Shown here: one piece after another, positions 1,742 to 42,546 of the stretch
Position numbering within the stretch: position 1 is the stretch's first letter
How the letters are laid out: the number at the start of each line of letters is the position of its first letter
Made by a program: the position numbers and the translations under genes
The notes under the pieces: model-generated
What the model saw: only the letters and a program-made list of their open reading frames with translations
Databases searched by the model: none
What the model was told of the DNA's origin: nothing
Source of the DNA: Nitrospinae bacterium RIFCSPLOWO2_12_39_16
Lineage (GTDB): Bacteria > Nitrospinota > Nitrospinia > UBA9942
NCBI GenBank assembly: GCA_001805005.1
Contig: MHDO01000021.1
Span: 1 to 43,082 of the forward strand
Reading direction: 5' to 3'
Length of the DNA stretch: 43,082 nt

Positions 1742-2245
1742 TCATAAAAAATACTTCTCGATCTCCGTTCCGTAACCTTCCTCTTCCTCTGTTGTTGTGC
1801 TGGATAACTCATCTATGATAGAGGCAAGATATTGTATTGACTCATCGGATGTTGTATTTTTGACTGTCTGATTTTGACCGACGGGATTAAGAAACACAAC
1901 TGCAGCCACAACGATAACGGCAACTATAGCTGATGCTAAAGCCATCCTGACCGCAAAGATATTTTTAAATGAAGAAGCTAATTCAGACAAAAAACCTGCT
2001 CCGGCTGCTGTTTTTTCTTCAGAAATAATCTCTTCTTTTATCCTCTGCCAGATCTTCTCATGGGAAAGGGATAGTTTTGGTGCATTTTTAAATGGCTCAA
2101 CCGTGCTTTCCATGGCAATCTCCATAAACTCTTTACAGTAAACACAAGAGGATAAATGAGCTTCTGCTTCCCTCCTGTTTTGTTCATTCATCATACCGTC
2201 TAAATAATCGGTCAATAAAACTTCCTGTATTTCTTTACATTTCAT
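1742..2245 (-). CDS. Anti-sigma factor, zf-HC2 type, single-pass membrane protein
   Basis: N-terminal MKCKEIQEVLLTDYLDG...AHLSSCVYCKEF (H-x3-C-x2-C zinc motif). Central TM ALASAIVAVIVVAAVVFL. Sits immediately downstream of the ECF sigma gene. Confidence 0.8.
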   Translation of the reverse strand: MKCKEIQEVLLTDYLDGMMNEQNRREAEAHLSSCVYCKEFMEIAMESTVEPFKNAPKLSLSHEKIWQRIKEEIISEEKTAAGAGFLSELASSFKNIFAVRMALASAIVAVIVVAAVVFLNPVGQNQTVKNTTSDESIQYLASIIDELSSTTTEEEEGYGTEIEKYFL

Positions 2246-2260
2246 ATTGAGCCACCTCTT

Positions 2261-2313
2261 TACCCCGTTACACCCAGAATGCCCCGCACTTCAGGACAGG
2301 GTGTAACGGGGTA
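2261..2313 (-). promoter_or_regulatory. Perfect 15-bp inverted repeat spanning the sigma stop codon, just upstream of the anti-sigma SD
   Basis: TACCCCGTTACACCC (2261-2275) and GGGTGTAACGGGGTA (2299-2313) are exact reverse complements separated by 23 nt. The sigma stop (2291-2293) lies in the loop. Confidence 0.6.
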
Positions 2314-2848
2314 TACTTAATGACATCATTGCTTCCCTTGCACGTTTAATGCGGCTGCGAACTGTGTTAATGGGAATATTCAGATTTTCAGCGATCTCCT
2401 GATAACTCAAGCCCTCAAGATTTCTAAGAACGATACATGCCCTCTGGTCGGGATTCAGGGCATCTAAAAGTCTGGCTATCATTTTTTTATTTTCCTGGTT
2501 TTTGATTGCATCTTCATCCTCCGGAGGAGAATGTGCAACCGCTTTATCATTGCCATGCTCAAGTATCTGTCTGAACTCTCTTGATAGCTTTTTTGCATGG
2601 TTAATCGCGGTATTGATAGCAATTCGGTAAATCCATGTTTTTAATGCTGATTCACCGCGAAAGGTTTTAAGGTTCCTGTAGATGGTCATAAAGACCTCCT
2701 GTGCCACATCTTCGGCATCGTCGGTATGCTTGACAATACGAAGCACCACATTAGCCACAAATTCAAAATATTCTCTATATATGGACTCAAAGGCTTTAAT
2801 ATCACCTTTGGCTGCCTTATTGACTATATCCCCGGATATTTCACTCAT
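2291..2848 (-). CDS. ECF-type RNA polymerase sigma-70 family factor
   Basis: 185 aa. Region 2 (DAEDVAQEVFMTIYRNLKTFRGESALKTWIYRIAINTAINHAKK) and region 4 (ACIVLRNLEGLSYQEIAENLNIPINTVRSRIKRAREAM) are typical ECF sigma. Confidence 0.9.
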   Translation of the reverse strand: MSEISGDIVNKAAKGDIKAFESIYREYFEFVANVVLRIVKHTDDAEDVAQEVFMTIYRNLKTFRGESALKTWIYRIAINTAINHAKKLSREFRQILEHGNDKAVAHSPPEDEDAIKNQENKKMIARLLDALNPDQRACIVLRNLEGLSYQEIAENLNIPINTVRSRIKRAREAMMSLSIPRYTLS

Positions 2849-2894: not shown

Positions 2895-3004
2895 GGATAT
2901 TATAAAACCACAGAAAACACTGAAGGCACAGAAAAAACCGGTTAAAAATAAATATTTTAATTCAGTGTCTTCAGTGCTTCAGTGGTTTAAATCAGGTCTT
3001 TGTT
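2895..3004 (+). repeat. Gene-boundary hairpin element, copy 1 (CACTGAAG-type arms)
   Basis: 5' GGATATTATAAAACCAC. Left arm 2905-2933 and right arm 2961-2988 match 24/29 as reverse complements. 3' GTGGTTTAAATCAGGTCTTTGTT abuts the antiporter stop. Confidence 0.75.
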
Positions 3005-4145
3005 ATTCCGAATCTAAGATATCTTCCGAGTGAAGAGGCATAAACCATTTCTGTGCAACGAAGGTTGGAATCACCGCACTCGCAATAAGCACACCTGTCA
3101 AAACAGAATACTGCACCTGATTTATAAAACCTGAATTTAAGCCGAATACACTTGCGATTAACCCGAATGTTAAGCCTGTGCTCATTAAAAGTGTTGTATA
3201 AATATTTCCACTGGGAATATATCTCTTTGCAAGGAAGTAAACACCAATAAATTTCATCAATTGTTTTATTACAAAAAAGGCAATGAAAAGCCCGAAAGCT
3301 GACATAATCAATGGAAATGAGACCTTTAAGCCCCCGACAATGAAAAAGAGGGGGGTGATAATTGCAAAGGAAACAGTTCTTAACCTGTTCTTTACGACCT
3401 TCGTCCCGGATGTCTCAGTAAAATGTTTTGACATCATTAGTCCCAAAACGAATGCCGGCAGTATTGCATGCCCCTCTCCTAAATTTGCGAAATAGATGAA
3501 TATCAGTAACAGGAGAAAAATATATTTTATCTCAGGCTCAATTACCTTGTTTTTTAATTTCGGGTTATCAAAGACCTGATGGGAAAATCGGGTTGCCAGT
3601 ATTATTACAAATATGGAAATTATAATAAAGATGAATGTAAATAAGTTTGGTTTTATAAATATGACACTCAATGTAAGTGCAACCCACATATTTGTTATAA
3701 AGGTAGATGCCATGATCAATTTGCCAATCTCTGTTTTTGAAAGATTCGTTTCTATAAGAACTGAGTAAACTACGGCGATAGAGGTTTCTGATAGGGCGGT
3801 AGCGACAATCAAAGATGCAGGAAGGCTCCAGCCTATAACATAGTATGTGTAAAGGAATGCCCCGATAAAAGGAATTAAAAAGGAAAATGCACCAATAAGA
3901 AAGCTCTCTTTAAATTTATCCCTCATTAATCGTGTGTCAATCTCGGCACCTGCCAAAAAGGTTAAAATAATTCCGCCGAAGTTTGCCAGATATAGCATCC
4001 ACTCTTCAGTCTTAAGCCCCAGATTTCCAGAGACAGCCCCTAAAAGAATCTCTATTATTGCTACTGATATACCAATTCTTAATGAAATAAGGCTTGAGAA
4101 AAAGACTAATAAGCCAACAATTAGTGGGGTAAAATCCGCCTTCAA
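3003..4145 (-). CDS. Cation:proton antiporter (Na+/H+ exchanger family, CPA2-like)
   Basis: 380 aa, about 11-12 TM helices, FLAGAEID motif. TTG start at 4145 is supported by SD GGGAGG 6 nt upstream. Confidence 0.85.
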   Translation of the reverse strand: MKADFTPLIVGLLVFFSSLISLRIGISVAIIEILLGAVSGNLGLKTEEWMLYLANFGGIILTFLAGAEIDTRLMRDKFKESFLIGAFSFLIPFIGAFLYTYYVIGWSLPASLIVATALSETSIAVVYSVLIETNLSKTEIGKLIMASTFITNMWVALTLSVIFIKPNLFTFIFIIISIFVIILATRFSHQVFDNPKLKNKVIEPEIKYIFLLLLIFIYFANLGEGHAILPAFVLGLMMSKHFTETSGTKVVKNRLRTVSFAIITPLFFIVGGLKVSFPLIMSAFGLFIAFFVIKQLMKFIGVYFLAKRYIPSGNIYTTLLMSTGLTFGLIASVFGLNSGFINQVQYSVLTGVLIASAVIPTFVAQKWFMPLHSEDILDSE

Positions 4146-4238
4146 GATTAACCTCCCTTTTTTGAAATTTGTAGGAGTTATCAGCCATTAAGGCGGTTAA
4201 AGGTGAACTCCATCACCTCCTTTTAAGAAAGGGGCTTT

Positions 4239-13090: not shown

Positions 13091-13211
13091 ATATAGGAAA
13101 TTATAAAATTAACCACAGGTAAACACAGATGAACACTGATAGAATAAAGAAAAAAAGTTTTTATCTGTGTTAATCTGTGTCCATCTGTGGTTTCATTAGG
13201 TCTTTGTTCTT
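13091..13211 (+). repeat. Gene-boundary hairpin element (CACAGAT decamer arms), reference copy
   Basis: ATATAGGAAATTATAAAAT-TAACCACAGGTAAACACAGATGAACACTGATAG ... TTATCTGTGTTAATCTGTGTCCATCTGTGGTTTCATTAGGTCTTTGTTCTT. The arms are about 26/32 complementary. Confidence 0.85.
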
Positions 13212-18068: not shown

Positions 18069-18203
18069 AAACCACAGATGGACACAGATTTACACAGACA
18101 AAAAATCATATAAGGGGAAAGGGGGGGGAATTTTTCTCCCCTATTCTCCAAATCCCCCTTTTCTCCTTAATCTTTTAGTTTCTGTGTTTATCTGTGGCTA
18201 ATA
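18069..18203 (+). repeat. Gene-boundary hairpin element with G8/C5 core
   Basis: AAACCACAGATGGACACAGATTTACACAGAC ... TAAGGGGAAAGGGGGGGG ... TCCCCCTTTTCTCCTTAATCTTTTAGTTTCTGTGTTTATCTGTGGCTAAT. Shares TTCTCCTTAATCTTTT and TCTGTGGCTAAT with 6921-7094. Confidence 0.8.
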
Positions 18204-25114: not shown

Positions 25115-25233
25115 TATAATTAAAATTTTAGCCACAGACTTTCACTGACTCATAAAAATCTCAAATCTCAAATTTAAAATTTCAAATCTTTTTAAGGTCT
25201 TTGTAAATCTGTGGCAAAAAGGATTTATTTTCC
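25115..25233 (+). repeat. Gene-boundary hairpin element between convergent kinase and REC genes
   Basis: TATAATTAAAATTTTAGCCACAGACTTTCACTGACT ... AAGGTCTTTGTAAATCTGTGGCAAAAAGGATTTATTTTCC. The left arm is nearly identical to that of 6944-6965. Confidence 0.75.
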
Positions 25234-31863: not shown

Positions 31864-32116
31864 ATGGCACATAAAAAGGGTCAGGGCAGCACATCTAATG
31901 GAAGAGACAGTATTGGAAAAAGGCTTGGCGTTAAGAGATACGGGGGTCAGATAGTTTCTGCCGGCAGCATTATTGTAAGACAGAGAGGAACAAAGTTTTA
32001 TCCCGGAGAGAATGTCGGGCTTGGTGTAGACTACACTATATTTGCAAAGATAGATGGTGTTGTGAAGTTTGAGAGAAAGGGCAGAGACAAGAAGCTGGTA
32101 AGTGTATATGCAGTAT

Positions 32117-32118
<2 letters not shown>
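31864..32118 (+). CDS. rpmA: 50S ribosomal protein L27
   Basis: [29 protein letters not shown]...[15 protein letters not shown] is a near-consensus L27. Confidence 0.95.
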
Positions 32119-33206
<1,088 letters not shown>

Positions 33207-33207
33207 G

Positions 33208-34335
33208 GTGAATAGAAAAAAAGTATTAAAAAAAGTCAGTAGGATTGTAATTAAGATTGGAAGCGGGGTTCTTACCACTCCTGACAGAAGTGGACTTGAT
33301 GATACTGTCATAGAAGAAATTACCCGGCAGGTTTCAACCCTCCATAAATCAGGACATGAAACGATTCTTGTTTCATCAGGTGCTATTGCTGCAGGGGTGA
33401 AGGAATTAAACCTTAAAAAAACTCCAGTGGATATACCTCACAAGCAGGCTGCAGCAGCAATCGGTCAAAGCCATCTGATTGGAAAATATGAAAGGTATTT
33501 CAAGAGGGAAGGGCTTAATGTAGCCCAGATTCTCCTTACCCATGATGATTTAAGCAATAGGATAAGATACCTTAATGCAAAAAACACAATTCTTACTATT
33601 CTCTCTTACAAGGTTATACCAATAATAAATGAAAATGATACTGTAGCTGTTGATGAGATAAAGTTTGGTGATAATGATACACTGTCTGCCATGGTGGCAA
33701 ACTTAATAGAGGCAGATTTGCTGATAATACTTTCAGATGTGAAGGGGTTATACAGTGCTGACCCTAAGTTAGACCCAACAGCAGAATTGATACCTGTTGT
33801 AGAGAAAATAACCAATGAGATTGAGGTAATGGCAGGCGACAGCAGATCTGCTACTGGTGTAGGCGGGATGGTGACAAAGATTCAGGCTGCAAAGAGGTTG
33901 TCTCATTCTGGAATACCAACTGTTATAGTTGATGGAAAGGTGAATGGTATAATAGAGGCTGTAATAAAAGGAGAAGAGGTTGGGACATTATTTCTGCCTG
34001 AGGAGGATAAACTTGGCAGTAAGAAATACTGGATTGCCTATACCCTTAAATCTAAGGGAAAGGTAAGGGTGGATAACGGTGCGAAGAATGTTCTTATTGC
34101 AGATGGTAAGAGCCTTTTGCCGTCAGGTATTTTAGAGATAGAAGGTAAGTTTAAGAGCGGTGATATGGTTAGCTGTATTGACAGCCGCAATAGGGAGTTT
34201 GCAAGGGGACTTGTAAATTATAGTTCAAATGAGCTAAAAAAAATTAAGGGTAAGCGCAGTTCAGAGATTGAAGAAATACTTGGATATAAGATGGTTGATG
34301 AGGCTATACACAGGGACAATCTCGTGATTCTATGA
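33208..34335 (+). CDS. proB: Glutamate 5-kinase with C-terminal PUA domain
   Basis: RIVIKIGSGVLT, VSSGAIAAG, FGDNDTLSA, and a PUA-like C-terminus (LPSGILEIEGKFKSGDMV). GTG 33208 starts 2 nt after the obg stop. The track ATG 33175 would overlap obg by 32 nt. Confidence 0.9.
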   Translation: MNRKKVLKKVSRIVIKIGSGVLTTPDRSGLDDTVIEEITRQVSTLHKSGHETILVSSGAIAAGVKELNLKKTPVDIPHKQAAAAIGQSHLIGKYERYFKREGLNVAQILLTHDDLSNRIRYLNAKNTILTILSYKVIPIINENDTVAVDEIKFGDNDTLSAMVANLIEADLLIILSDVKGLYSADPKLDPTAELIPVVEKITNEIEVMAGDSRSATGVGGMVTKIQAAKRLSHSGIPTVIVDGKVNGIIEAVIKGEEVGTLFLPEEDKLGSKKYWIAYTLKSKGKVRVDNGAKNVLIADGKSLLPSGILEIEGKFKSGDMVSCIDSRNREFARGLVNYSSNELKKIKGKRSSEIEEILGYKMVDEAIHRDNLVIL

Positions 34336-34348
34336 AAGTATAAAATCT

Positions 34349-34455
34349 CTGGAACACTAATTACACGAATATACGAATGGCACGAATAAAAACTAAAATT
34401 TTTTCTGTTATCAACTATTGGTGTAATTAGTCCATTCGTGTTATTCGTGTTCAGG
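34349..34455 (+). repeat. Inverted arrays of ACGAAT-type units between proB and proA
   Basis: GAACAC..CACGAATATACGAATGG (left) versus CCATTCGTGTTATTCGTGTTC (right). Also TAATTACAC / GTGTAATTA. Confidence 0.6.
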
Positions 34456-34475
34456 TTTTTGTTTATTTTAATTCT

Positions 34476-35727: not shown

Positions 35728-35806
35728 ACAGTGTCAGTGTCAGTGAACAGTGTCAGCAAGAATACTATCGATACTGATACTGACACTAATCACTAACACT
35801 GAATTT
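35728..35806 (+). repeat. Hexa/heptamer arrays (CAGTGT, GATACT) between proA and nadD
   Basis: CAGTGTCAGTGTCAGTGAACAGTGTCAG ... GATACTGATACTGACACTAATCACTAACACTGAATTT-ATG. Confidence 0.75.
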
Positions 35807-38679: not shown

Positions 38680-41307
38680 TCAATTGACTGATGGTATTTG
38701 TTTTTTTGGTATAGTAATAGTAAAAGTAGTCCCTCTGTTTATCTCACTCTGAACCTCTATTCTTCCCCCAAGCCTTTCTATTATGCCATAGCTGACAGAC
38801 AGACCGAGCCCTGTTCCTGTCCCAACATCTTTAGTTGTAAAGAACGGGTCAAATATCCTGCTCAAGTTCTCTTGCGGGATGCCTATTCCGGTATCCGATA
38901 TAGCCACAACAAGCTCATCTCTTTCTTCCATACTTTTTATTGTCAGGATGCCGCCGCTGTCAGTAATTGCCTGTATTGCATTGATAATTACATTAAGAAT
39001 GACCTGCTGTAAATGGTTATAATCCAGTATAAATTTTTTGCTGTTCGTATTTAAGTCAAGTTTTAATTCTAAATTTCTCTCCTTTATTTTATATTCAACC
39101 AGTTTCAGAGTTTCTGTAATTATCTCGTCAAGGTTGTGCGGGGAGAATTCAAATTGGTGCTCCTTTGCAAAATCAAGCAGATTTCTTATAACAGATTCTA
39201 TTCTATTTAGCCCCTTTTCCAAAAGGGGGATGTATTTCTTTCTGACATCCTCATCATTTCCATCAGTATTTAGCGTCCTTACACAATTTTGCATTCCCCC
39301 CAATGGATTATTTATTTCATGGGCTATTCCTGTTGCCAGCTGTCCTATTGCAGCGAGCTTCTCTGTCCTGTTCATCTGATGTTGTATCCTCTTCTGTTCT
39401 GTAATATCCCTTGCGATTCCAAGCAGGTCTGTTATATTGCCACTTTCATCTTTTAGGGGTGACGAGCTTATAACTACATTCCTTATTTCACCCTTCTTAT
39501 TTGAAATTTCAACCTCGTATATCTGTTTTATGCCGTCTTTTATTGACCTATTGAACCTTTTACCTTCATGTCTTGGTGCGAGGATACTGAATATTGACTG
39601 CCCTATAAGTTCATCCTTTTTATAGCCCCAGTCTTCAATCTTCTGATTCAGGTAAGTGAATGTTCCATCCCTGTTTACTATATATATGACATCATTGGCA
39701 TTCTCTAAAAGGTTCTGCAGGTAATCCTTTGTCTCTTTAATCTCCTTTGTCCTGTCTTCAATCATTTTCTCCAGATGCTCACTGTATTCCTTTAATTCTT
39801 TCTCCATCTTCTTTTTGACTGTAACATCCCTTACGACCATTACTGAGCCTATAGTTTTTTCTCCTGACTTTATAGATGTGGCAACTATCTCAGCTGTCTT
39901 TTCGCCTATTGTGGATGTTGTAAACCAAGGCATCTTATCAGGTTGTTTTATTAATTCTCCCACCCTCTCAGGTTTCCCGTGACAGGGGAATATACTCTTT
40001 CCAAGGATATGTTTTTTGTTTACATCAAGTATTTCCTCAGCAGTAGGATTTACAATTATGACCTTATTTTCCTCATCTGCCACAATAATCCCATCCCCTA
40101 CACTAAGCAGTATGCTTTCTAATGTATTCTTTTCCTCTGACAATTCGCTGTAAAGCCCTGTCAATCTTCCAGCCATCTTGTTAAATTCTATTGCCAGAGA
40201 GGAAATTTCATCACCGGTATCTATGCTCAGCCTGTGCTCAAAATTCCCCTTTCCTATGAGTTCTGCCCCCTCTTTAAGGAGGAGTATAGGCTTTCCGATT
40301 TTATTCGCCGCATATATGCCGAGTGTAGAAAGGATTGCCACCATAATAATGCCGCTTAATAAGACAAGGAGTAAGAGTCTGTTAATAGGAGAGTAGGTTT
40401 CATCAGGGTGCTGCCTCACGAAGATAAACCATTTCTTCTTGCCAAAACTCATGTCAAAATCGTATGTAAGTTTGACAGGTGCAAAACCGATTATAGAATC
40501 TATTCCGCCGTGTGCATCATCCGCCGCCACTGCCCACCCAGGCTCATTGCTGATTATCAAATTCATCAGGGACTTGTCAATTGAGTGGCTCCTTGGCGGG
40601 AATATGGGGCACATTATAATTGACCCTTCAGAATCCACTAAATTAGCATGTCCGGTTTCATCAATCTGGACATCTGATATTATCTTATAAAGAGTATCTA
40701 TCTTTAAAATTGCTTTAATAATGCCAGTCGTGTTTCCATCTTCTATTAGCGGGATAACCATAGTGATTAGAGGCTTTCCATCTTTATCATCAAAATAGAC
40801 ATCACTTAAATATACTTTATTACTTTTGCCGGAAAGTATATCTTTAACCACATCTTCATCATCTTGAAATATGGGTTTGTTCTGGTTTTTAGTATCGGAA
40901 GTAGCTACTAGAATTCCATTTTTATCGGTTACATAAATTACTATGTATTCTTCCTTATTATGGTTTTTAAACTGCCTTAGATGTTCAGATGCCTGATTGC
41001 CCATAATCCCCTCTTGCCCCCCTTTATCAAAGGGGGGTTGGGGGGATTTAACTGCATCTCTTATATCAGGAGAAAATGTAAGATTGTGAAGCTCATCTAT
41101 CTCCCTATGTAATATGATATTGACCTTATCAGCAGTCTCTTTTGCAATCTCTTTAAAGTTTGCACCTATGGAATTTCTTATAACCTTAGTGCTGCCGATT
41201 GATATTAGAAATATTCCGAGGACTAAGGGGAGAAGCCCCACTATAACCATTGTGGAGACAAGGTTTCGCCTGATACTCTTTTTTCTGAAATTTTCTAATA
41301 TGTTCAT
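38680..41307 (-). CDS. Sensor histidine kinase (Cache-like periplasmic domain - HAMP - 2 x PAS - HisKA - HATPase)
   Basis: TM1 VIVGLLPLVLGIFLISIG, about 290-aa external domain, TM2, HAMP (PILLLKEGAELIGKGNFEHRL), two PAS-like modules, H-box GIAHEINNPL, G boxes DTGIGI / GTGLGLS. Confidence 0.95.
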   Translation of the reverse strand: MNILENFRKKSIRRNLVSTMVIVGLLPLVLGIFLISIGSTKVIRNSIGANFKEIAKETADKVNIILHREIDELHNLTFSPDIRDAVKSPQPPFDKGGQEGIMGNQASEHLRQFKNHNKEEYIVIYVTDKNGILVATSDTKNQNKPIFQDDEDVVKDILSGKSNKVYLSDVYFDDKDGKPLITMVIPLIEDGNTTGIIKAILKIDTLYKIISDVQIDETGHANLVDSEGSIIMCPIFPPRSHSIDKSLMNLIISNEPGWAVAADDAHGGIDSIIGFAPVKLTYDFDMSFGKKKWFIFVRQHPDETYSPINRLLLLVLLSGIIMVAILSTLGIYAANKIGKPILLLKEGAELIGKGNFEHRLSIDTGDEISSLAIEFNKMAGRLTGLYSELSEEKNTLESILLSVGDGIIVADEENKVIIVNPTAEEILDVNKKHILGKSIFPCHGKPERVGELIKQPDKMPWFTTSTIGEKTAEIVATSIKSGEKTIGSVMVVRDVTVKKKMEKELKEYSEHLEKMIEDRTKEIKETKDYLQNLLENANDVIYIVNRDGTFTYLNQKIEDWGYKKDELIGQSIFSILAPRHEGKRFNRSIKDGIKQIYEVEISNKKGEIRNVVISSSPLKDESGNITDLLGIARDITEQKRIQHQMNRTEKLAAIGQLATGIAHEINNPLGGMQNCVRTLNTDGNDEDVRKKYIPLLEKGLNRIESVIRNLLDFAKEHQFEFSPHNLDEIITETLKLVEYKIKERNLELKLDLNTNSKKFILDYNHLQQVILNVIINAIQAITDSGGILTIKSMEERDELVVAISDTGIGIPQENLSRIFDPFFTTKDVGTGTGLGLSVSYGIIERLGGRIEVQSEINRGTTFTITIPKKQIPSVN
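41005..41048. repeat. G/C-tract nested palindromic element inside the kinase CDS
   Basis: AATCCCCTCTTGCCCCCCTTTATCAAAGGGGGGTTGGGGGGATT. Inner stem CCCCCCTTT/AAAGGGGGG. Encodes SPQPPFDKGGQEGI. Confidence 0.8.
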
Positions 41308-41399: not shown

Positions 41400-41520
41400 A
41401 TGTATAGGAAATTATAAAATCTTTAGCCACCAAGACACAAAGGCTCAAAGAAATAGGGAATAATTTTTACTTAGTGTCTTCGTGTCTTTGTGGCAAAAAT
41501 TAGGTTTTTGTTTTTCCTAT
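41397..41520 (+). repeat. Gene-boundary hairpin element, AAGACACAAAGG subfamily, copy 3 (head-to-tail with copy 2)
   Basis: TTCATGTATAGGAAATTATAAAATCTTTAGCCACCAAGACACAAAGGCTCAAAG...CTTAGTGTCTTCGTGTCTTTGTGGCAAAAATTAGGTTTTTGTTTTTCCT. The 3' terminus encodes the deacetylase C-terminus. Confidence 0.85.
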
Positions 41521-42546
41521 AAGGCTTTTTAAATGAAATACTACCGACTCCCCTAATGCCTCAAGGTTATATCCACCCTCAAGAACAGATACAATTCTCC
41601 CTTTACAGACCTTATCTGAAGCCTCACAAATAATATCTGTTAGTTTGCCGAATCCTTCGGATGTAATATTCATTGAACCAAGGGGGTCGTTTATATGTGC
41701 ATCAAAACCTGCAGAAATCATAATCAAATCCGGTTTATAATTGATTATCTTAGGATAAATCCTTTTTTTAAAGAGAGAAATATATTCCTTATCACCCTGC
41801 CCATGAGGCAGAGGTAAATTCATTGTAAAACCTTTTCCATCTCCATTTCCAGTCTCGTCAGACCTGCCAGTGCCTGGAAATAGGTATTCCTGATGAAGGC
41901 TTACATAAAAGACAGCAGGATCATTATAGAATGCGTTCTGTGTGCCGTTGCCATGATGAACATCCCAGTCTATGATAAAGACCCTTTTTACATTATACAT
42001 TTTTTGGGCATACTTTGCACCGATTGCAATATTATTAAAAAGGCAGAATCCCATTGCCCTGTCCCTTTCAGCATGGTGTCCGGGCGGCCTTACAGCACAA
42101 AAGACATTATTTACCCCGTTAGAAAGCCCCACCCCTTGTGGGGTGGGGACTAAAGCCCCGTCCTTTCTAACGGGGTTTATCTTTCCTTCAAATACAGCAT
42201 CTACTCCTGTTATAACCCCTCCTGCTGCGAGAAGGGCTGCATCATAAGAGTCTTCTGAAATAACAGTATCTGCATCCAATTCCCCCCTGCCCCCCTTTTC
42301 TAAAGGGGGGAGTGGGGGGATTAACTTTTCACAAGCCTCTTTAACATTGTGAATGTATTCCCTATCATGGATTAATGAAATCTGTTCAACTGTTGCAGGA
42401 ATCGGGGTGAGATTTATCAGTTTTTTTGTCAGATTCTCATTTTCTATCCACTTAATGATTGTTGTAAGACGGTTGGAATTTTCAGGATGATTGCCGGTAT
42501 TATGTTTCAGATATACAGGTGAATACACAAAACCTGTCTTTTTCAT
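41500..42546 (-). CDS. Histone deacetylase-family (AcuC/HDAH-like) zinc amidohydrolase carrying two in-frame palindromic insertions
   Basis: MKKTGFVYSPVYLKH, RPPGHHAERDRAMGFCLFNN, IDWDVHHGNGTQ, ISAGFDAH, LEGGY. ATG 42546 gives the conventional N-terminus. Confidence 0.9.
   Translation of the reverse strand: MKKTGFVYSPVYLKHNTGNHPENSNRLTTIIKWIENENLTKKLINLTPIPATVEQISLIHDREYIHNVKEACEKLIPPLPPLEKGGRGELDADTVISEDSYDAALLAAGGVITGVDAVFEGKINPVRKDGALVPTPQGVGLSNGVNNVFCAVRPPGHHAERDRAMGFCLFNNIAIGAKYAQKMYNVKRVFIIDWDVHHGNGTQNAFYNDPAVFYVSLHQEYLFPGTGRSDETGNGDGKGFTMNLPLPHGQGDKEYISLFKKRIYPKIINYKPDLIMISAGFDAHINDPLGSMNITSEGFGKLTDIICEASDKVCKGRIVSVLEGGYNLEALGESVVFHLKSLIGKTKT
42114..42175. repeat. 62-nt nested perfect palindrome inside the deacetylase CDS
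   Basis: Outer stem CCCCGTTAGAAAG / CTTTCTAACGGGG (13 bp). Inner stem CCCCACCCC / GGGGTGGGG (9 bp), loop TTGT. Confidence 0.85.
42278..42322. repeat. Second copy of the G/C-tract palindromic element, inside the deacetylase CDS
   Basis: AATTCCCCCCTGCCCCCCTTTTCTAAAGGGGGGAGTGGGGGGATT. Encodes IPPLPPLEKGGRGE in the same element frame as the kinase copy. Confidence 0.8.

Follow-up and report, generated by a model that had tools for sequence, protein, structure and literature searches.

The window analysed here, a stretch of DNA of 43,082 nt in total, comes from a Nitrospinota MAG of the Rifle aquifer (groundwater). A gene for a deacetylase of the HDAC family in this window contains a nested palindrome that keeps the reading frame open, which raises a key question: is the palindrome a native part of the gene or a foreign element and, if foreign, is it translated together with the enzyme or handled at the RNA level? 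The original prediction considered it to be an in-frame insert of about 20-22 residues next to the catalytic His-His loop, analogous to the Rickettsia palindromic elements (RPEs) but with another sequence and another host. The reading that we favor, with a probability of roughly 85%, is that the palindrome is a non-autonomous hairpin MITE that was inserted in frame and is translated through, and that the tract carrying it was spread by recombination.

An intact deacetylase gene with a nested palindrome

The deacetylase ORF matches PF00850 with E = 2e-102 in a profile search and shows the features of this family, namely the domain itself, the catalytic His-His pair, the Asp/His zinc ligands and the EGGY tyrosine. 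In an alignment with 119 homologues, the catalytic and zinc-binding residues H157, H158, D193, D195, H197, D282 and Y326 are all invariant. The gene and the parts of the palindrome are as follows.

41500-42546, minus strand: host gene, class II HDAC-like deacetylase (AcuC/HDAH type), 348 aa from ATG, intact
42114-42175: 62-nt hairpin element (putative MITE) with the termini CCCCGTTAGAAAG ... CTTTCTAACGGGG; absent in the orthologous loci L001 and L002, 62/62 identical in L003-L006
42114-42126: left terminal inverted repeat and outer stem arm, 13 bp; 10 conserved bases CCCCGTTAGA followed by 3 variable, covarying bases (AAG)
42127-42148: inner perfect 9-bp hairpin CCCCACCCC-TTGT-GGGGTGGGG; variable core, found in the HDAC alleles only
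42149-42162: unpaired asymmetric segment ACTAAAGCCCCGTC; its AAAGCCCCGTC part is common to relatives at locus L208
42163-42175: right terminal inverted repeat and outer stem arm, 13 bp
42110-42113: left copy of the target-site duplication, TTTA on the plus strand (TAAA on the coding strand), from the comparison of empty and occupied alleles
42176-42179: right copy of the target-site duplication, TTTA, from the same comparison
42112-42177, minus strand: 22 inserted codons, residues 124-145, NPVRKDGALVPTPQGVGLSNGV

On the plus strand, the whole element thus reads CCCCGTTAGAAAG-CCCCACCCC-TTGT-GGGGTGGGG-ACTAAAGCCCCGTC-CTTTCTAACGGGG. The repeat search bore out the nested architecture, with both the outer and the inner stem perfect: the inner pair comprises 9 nt (42127-42135 / 42140-42148), and the outer pair reaches 14 nt when the flanking A/T is counted (42113-42126 / 42163-42176). 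The folding energy is -42.5 kcal/mol for the mRNA strand (z = -6.3) and -25.3 kcal/mol for DNA (z = -7.5), and none of 200 shuffles equalled either value. Two matches to the pattern CCCCGTTA-N(20-50)-TAACGGGG were found in the window, against none in 100 shuffles of it. As predicted, the 62 nt contain no stop codon in the minus-strand frame, and the ORF runs open through the insert.

Empty and occupied alleles

The alignment of the 119 homologues gave exactly 22 extra residues in the window protein, at the upper end of the predicted range. The peptide is present in the window protein, P0001, P0003 and P0004, and absent in P0002 and 115 others, which include P0005-P0014 and all distant homologues. 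P0002 is 98% identical to the window protein elsewhere, yet its flank is of the empty-allele type. The same contrast was found in orthologue DNA, where the empty alleles L001 and L002 read GGAAAGA-TAAA-TAATG and the occupied alleles (the window and L003-L006) read GGAAAGA-TAAA-[62 nt]-TAAA-TAATG. The insertion therefore consists of the 62-nt element plus a 4-bp duplication, i.e., 66 nt or 22 codons.

Could the 22 residues instead represent a native, lineage-specific loop that is palindromic by chance, or an artefact of the assembly process? Loop lengths do vary within the deacetylase family. However, the nearly identical P0002 does without the loop, and no other homologue has one at that position; perfect stems of 14 and 9 bp were never seen in shuffles; and the same termini recur at hundreds of unrelated loci (see below). 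Moreover, an assembly artefact is excluded by four further independent assemblies from different projects (three from ENA and one from NCBI; L003-L006), all of which carry the identical insertion. The empty-site alleles and the family membership refute this explanation, and virtually no weight can be given to it. Orthologues with an equivalent loop in place of the palindrome, or an assembly error, were the two outcomes that would have spoken against the original prediction, and it has withstood both.

Comparison of the occupied alleles also provides information on the later history of the insertion. All five share the same 62 nt, the next 100 nt are 95-100% identical, and the genes overall are 83-96% identical, while synonymous divergence between alleles with the identical element amounts to 0.4-0.6. 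In genes that are otherwise only 83-87% identical, the tract surrounding the element still reaches 95-100%. Complete identity of the element at such divergence requires either recombination or strong constraint. Along the deacetylase gene, identity of L001-L006 to the window is strongly mosaic (46% to 100% in 60-nt blocks), a sign of frequent homologous recombination between the Nitrospinota strains concerned. The simplest reading of these sequence comparisons is that homologous recombination has spread the insertion-bearing tract among strains; strong constraint on the element, or more than one insertion into this site, is a possible alternative.

A dispersed family of hairpins with 13-bp ends

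Another important question is whether the palindrome has relatives elsewhere. The original prediction had proposed a search for further copies, and this search yielded two copies in the window and a large family outside it. The scan of one genome per species listed at least 120 matches. The phyla and lineages among the matches listed are Omnitrophota, many CPR lineages, Planctomycetota, Bacteroidota, Cloacimonadota, WOR-3, Nitrospirota and Desulfobacterota, together with one Methanosarcinales MAG, and family copies were found in at least 10 phyla. An unbiased metagenome scan using the pattern CCCCGTTAGA-N(24-54)-TCTAACGGGG contained 143 distinct copies among the matches listed, and a few predicted viral contigs also carry family members. 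Combined, the genome and metagenome samples comprise at least 277 distinct copies with stems of at least 10 bp.

The family terminus is CCCCGTTAGAnnn (13 bp). The elements are approximately 30 to 75 nt long, with nested forms of up to ~190 nt, and have no transposase gene inside. Throughout the family, the perfect stem has a sharply defined length of 13 bp: complementarity at stem positions 11, 12 and 13 is 94%, 88% and 79%, respectively, and falls to 22% at position 14. Positions 11-13 differ between copies and nevertheless pair. Identical 4-bp direct repeats flank 92 of the 143 unbiased copies, and inverted flanks were found in 6. The most frequent duplicated targets in this sample are TTTA/TAAA (44), TTCA/TGAA (17), TTGA/TCAA (11) and CTTG/CAAG (6), while TTAA is rare. 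In two loci, L083 (TTTA) and L122 (TAAG), a nested insertion has a duplication of its own.

The closest relatives of the window element, both in L208, have the GAAAG stem and the AAAGCCCCGTC segment in common with it. One of them (L208 1245-1277, 33 nt) has no core hairpin, and the core hairpin of the other (L208 2363-2421) differs from that of the HDAC element; the inner 9-bp hairpin is thus an exchangeable, variable core.

Two groups of loci deserve separate mention. In the CCCCGTTAAAT subfamily (L030, L031, L037, L063, L065, L078, L080, L085, L106, L115, L117 and L119), the two flanks are TTTA and TGAA instead of an identical 4-bp repeat, and its true ends or insertion chemistry may differ from those of the main family. 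In the second group, 16 of 285 copies lie exactly at the prepilin cleavage motif, where the insert falls within the leader peptide and G/FTLIE is regenerated: the right terminus with the TTTA duplication reads CTA ACG GGG TTT ACC, i.e., LTG/FT. These loci include L082 (1654-2238, minus-strand ORF), L053, L060, L068, L072, L099, L109 and L120, as well as L149, L178, L191, L192, L218, L221 and L243. The pilin-like genes of Planctomycetota and Omnitrophota look like a tolerated insertion hot spot. The idea that the entire family is merely a conserved prepilin-leader motif (LTG/FTLIE) was rejected, since only these 16 of 285 copies are found there.

Rfam searches of the window and eight family loci gave no match at the elements, the matches being confined to a fluoride riboswitch and tRNAs, and full-text literature searches with the terminus sequence returned chance primer matches only. 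The family and its breadth across phyla therefore appear to be undescribed so far.

Further copies in the same lineage

Two further sites in the window bear on the activity of the family in this lineage.

2263-2311: second family copy, 49 nt, CACCC subfamily; flanks TTTA and TATA; homologous to copies in L116 and L057
36843-36846: empty target site TTCA in the rsfS-dksA spacer, occupied in L003 and L004 according to the alignment

The first overlaps the 3' end of an ECF sigma-factor ORF (2291-2848, minus strand), whose last codons it replaces, providing a new C-terminus, IPRYTLS, together with the stop codon; the match to the sigma-factor model stops near residue 175 of 185. The rsfS-dksA spacer of L003 and L004 contains a 61-nt family member and a duplicated TTCA, whereas in the window the site is unoccupied. 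This spacer is the second presence/absence site within the lineage that carries the HDAC element.

Several other observations were made in the vicinity. The ribosome-binding site of the anti-sigma factor gene (1742-2245, minus strand) lies directly after the 2263-2311 element, and without this element the overlapping stop/start layout of the sigma and anti-sigma genes would return. A third palindrome, of the same CCCCCC-TTT...AAA-GGGGGG type as the second palindrome of the HDAC gene (42278-42322, see below), is found at 41004-41050 in a histidine kinase ORF (38680-41307, minus strand), where it encodes SPQPPFDKGGQEG and is shared by L006; its interpretation as a simple insertion was rejected, since in L003 and L005 its place is taken by an unrelated stretch of almost equal length. 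A fluoride riboswitch (RF01734, 63 bits; 4165-4226, minus strand) is situated upstream of a gene of the Na+/H+-exchanger family (3003-4145). Long, imperfect, AT-rich inverted repeats occupy intergenic positions at 2906-2979, 13111-13201, 18083-18196, 25126-25220, 32111-32196, 34332-34472, 35734-35802 and 41422-41498, one of them directly downstream of the HDAC gene. They contain reiterated CACAGA/TCTGTG-like or CACGAAT-like motifs and may represent a further repeat family or bidirectional terminators.

Frame preservation inside genes

Is the element translated or removed? The gene-internal copies of the family make it possible to address this issue. Stop-free spans of at least 150 codons harbor 98 of the 277 copies (~35%). 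The length of 97 of these 98 is 3n+2, which together with the 4-bp duplication gives a multiple of three, while clearly non-coding copies show no such bias (3n+2 in 22 of 61). The gene-internal copies are read in one of two frames, xPVR...SNGV (57 copies) or (T/A)PLE...LTG (41 copies); in the third frame, the two termini contain TAG and TAA stops. The encoded peptides are hydrophilic. A frame that is kept inside genes and is unbiased outside them argues for translation and against RNA excision, and a filter limited to genes is what is expected of selection on the translated product.

The opposite view would be that the 66 nt are cut from the mRNA, or that the hairpin serves as a processing, pausing or stability signal, and that what matters is not the added peptide. 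The great stability of the hairpin in the mRNA strand is consistent with this view, as are the covariation at stem positions 11-13, which shows selection for pairing and not for sequence alone, and the complete conservation of the element across diverged alleles. However, excision would make the keeping of the frame needless, the gene-internal copies avoid stops in the frame that they use, and the element has no counterpart in Rfam. In addition, we know of no bacterial mechanism by which a hairpin of 66 nt could be removed from within a coding sequence and the ends rejoined. RNA-level handling in place of translation is therefore quite improbable, while a regulatory side effect of the hairpin, such as ribosome pausing, is possible. 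Between the surface loop and the RNA-level handling that the original prediction had set side by side, a translated loop in the deacetylase is the favored option, to which the structural model described below also points.

The gene-internal copies represent a large natural data set on the protein positions that tolerate 10-25 extra residues. They also call for caution in annotation and in structure-based calls of "novel loops" in metagenomic proteins.

The insert in the enzyme

An AlphaFold2 model of the deacetylase based on a 120-sequence alignment has a mean pLDDT of 89 and a pTM of 0.91. Outside the inserts, pLDDT exceeds 90 and the full fold is kept; the best structural matches in Foldseek are the bacterial enzymes Kdac1 and HDAH (TM 0.87). 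At residues 122-130 and 136-142, pLDDT is below 50, and the insert is modelled as a low-confidence loop. It is positioned between helix 100-119 and strand 147-150, the strand that leads to His157/His158; in HDAC6, the corresponding helix passes straight into the strand without a loop between them. In the arginase/deacetylase fold, the parallel sheet carries the active site at its C-terminal edge; judged from this fold topology, the insert would lie at the far end of the strand, away from the catalytic His157/His158. The predicted proximity to the catalytic loop thus holds along the sequence, where the insert ends 12 residues before the His-His pair, but not in the structure, where it lies at the N-terminal end of the His-bearing beta-strand and not in the loop itself.

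The short distance along the sequence makes it necessary to consider that the insertion inactivated the enzyme, in which case the gene would be a young pseudogene or dispensable and its open frame incidental. The presence of a second palindromic insert in the same gene could be read in the same way. Against this, five insert-bearing alleles with DNA differences of up to 17% have all kept an intact ORF, and dN/dS between these alleles (0.16-0.23) is the same as that in comparisons with empty alleles (0.17-0.20). All catalytic and zinc-binding residues are retained, and the fold is modelled with confidence around the inserts. Inactivation is thus very improbable, and we infer that the deacetylase retains its enzyme activity with the insert in place.

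The second palindrome (42278-42322, residues ~75-90) is also in frame and belongs to a different family; it reads AATTCCCCCCTGCCCCCCTTT-TCT-AAAGGGGGGAGTGGGGGGATT on the plus strand and encodes PPLPPLEKGGRGE. It is absent in P0007-P0010, doubled in P0006 and present as the variant PTPPLLKGGKGG in P0004 and P0011. The pLDDT here is 61-70, and the site appears to be a variable loop and a hot spot for insertions.

Search for the mobilising enzyme

Which enzyme could move such small elements? Neither long CCCCGTTA end pairs nor generic inverted repeats with duplications revealed a convincing autonomous partner among 252 loci (1.7 Mb), and a Pfam scan of ten large ORFs of the window revealed no transposase. 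To our knowledge, no parent insertion sequence of the hairpin family has been described. Transposition is thus inferred from footprints only, and these footprints suggest mobilisation in trans by a DDE-type transposase that makes 4-bp staggered cuts. By analogy of ends and targets, this transposase may be IS1380/piggyBac-like, which we offer as a lead only. Recognition of a 13-bp hairpin end, together with 4-bp target duplication, defines a transposase that can realistically be searched for.

Strand-specific mobilisation of the IS200/IS605 or REP type had also been considered, since the biased sample of genomes contained asymmetric flanks (TTTA...TGAA). It was dropped for the main family, since 64% of the unbiased copies have identical 4-bp direct repeats; the REP/RAYT and IS200/IS605 mechanisms fit poorly because they make no target duplication.

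Proposed mechanism

Taken as a mechanism, the favored reading would run as follows. A very small MITE, with 13-bp perfect terminal inverted repeats (CCCCGTTAGA plus three covarying bases) flanking a variable core, was inserted at TAAA in the deacetylase gene, with duplication of this tetranucleotide. A 3n+2 length, a 4-nt duplication and a stop-free frame result in 22 extra codons without a frameshift. Ribosomes would read straight through, and the peptide NPVR...SNGV would form a flexible surface loop between helix 100-119 and strand 147-150. Since this loop would lie at the strand end opposite the catalytic His157/His158, the enzyme would remain functional and the allele would persist. The insertion-bearing tract would later have been exchanged between diverged strains via homologous recombination.

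A more far-reaching proposal is that the CCCCGTTAGA hairpins are undescribed pan-phylum bacterial, possibly archaeal, mini-transposons that are moved by a seamlessly excising IS1380/piggyBac-like transposase, and that their architecture favors in-frame survival and makes them a reversible source of surface loops. The 3n+2 length with the 4-bp duplication and the confinement of both terminal stops to one frame would then be the basis of this survival, and presence and absence would be exchanged by recombination, possibly also by precise excision. In this extended form, the proposal is speculative, and we regard it as unlikely.

Comparison with known systems

At the foot of the hairpin, REP and REPIN sequences carry an unpaired tag, GTAG or CGTC; they make no target duplication and are linked to RAYT tyrosine transposases, and REPs inside ORFs that encode 20-30 residues are reported from Opitutus terrae and R. 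conorii (PMC3733652, PMC3116915). The HDAC element resembles them as a small, GC-rich hairpin repeat of a kind that is sometimes intragenic, but its hairpin foot is flanked by TTTA on both sides without a tag, and a 4-bp duplication is present.

A different resemblance is that to the piggyBac superfamily, whose prokaryotic relatives are the IS1380 family; piggyBac has a 13-bp terminal repeat in IFP2, and TAAA or TCAA variants of its duplication have been reported (PMC5381638, PMC10813416). The hairpin family shares the 5'-CCC start and the 13-bp terminal repeat, and its 4-bp duplication at T-rich, TTNA-type targets (TTTA, TTCA, TTGA and, rarely, TTAA) may be a further likeness. It differs in that the dominant target is TTTA instead of TTAA and that CTTG and CTCG targets are also used, and the likeness is one of footprints alone, no transposase having been found in the loci searched.

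Bacterial MITEs, such as Correia/NEMIS, ERIC, RUP and the Coxiella QMITE, have been reviewed (PMC10969869, PMC3184786). Like them, the HDAC element is short and non-coding and has terminal inverted repeats, a target duplication (TAAA in the HDAC gene and TTCA in the rsfS-dksA spacer of the related strains) and dispersed, polymorphic copies, some of them in frame within genes. The differences are that the element is far smaller than most MITEs, that it consists essentially of a single hairpin, that its termini are conserved across phyla and that a gene-internal share of ~35% is unusually high.

The closest parallel is provided by the RPEs (RPE-1 to RPE-10; Ogata et al. 2000, 2002), which a review (PMC10969869) describes as elements of ~100-150 bp that are inserted in frame in unrelated genes and are restricted to Rickettsia and relatives. 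Both groups are palindromic and lie in frame in unrelated protein genes, both have a large gene-internal share, and the extra peptide is thought to be surface-exposed. In-frame placement inside ORFs, with probable translation into an added peptide, applies to the window element and to 97 of the 98 gene-internal copies. Nevertheless, the HDAC element is not an RPE by sequence or by host: it comes from a Nitrospinota MAG and not from Rickettsiales, and the Pfam and NCBIfam searches gave no match to any RPE-domain model. The window element is 62 nt long (family ~30-75 nt), has other termini and shows a clear 4-bp duplication, and its relatives occur in free-living environmental hosts of at least 10 phyla. 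The analogy drawn in the original prediction, a foreign element comparable to RPEs in another host and with another sequence, is thus supported by the empty and occupied alleles, the duplication, the dispersed family and the Nitrospinota host. Protein-coding palindromes have been treated mainly as a peculiarity of Rickettsia, apart from scattered REPs within genes of other bacteria, and here one is found in a free-living groundwater Nitrospinota; the phenomenon itself is of a known kind, that of protein-coding palindromic MITEs such as the RPEs.
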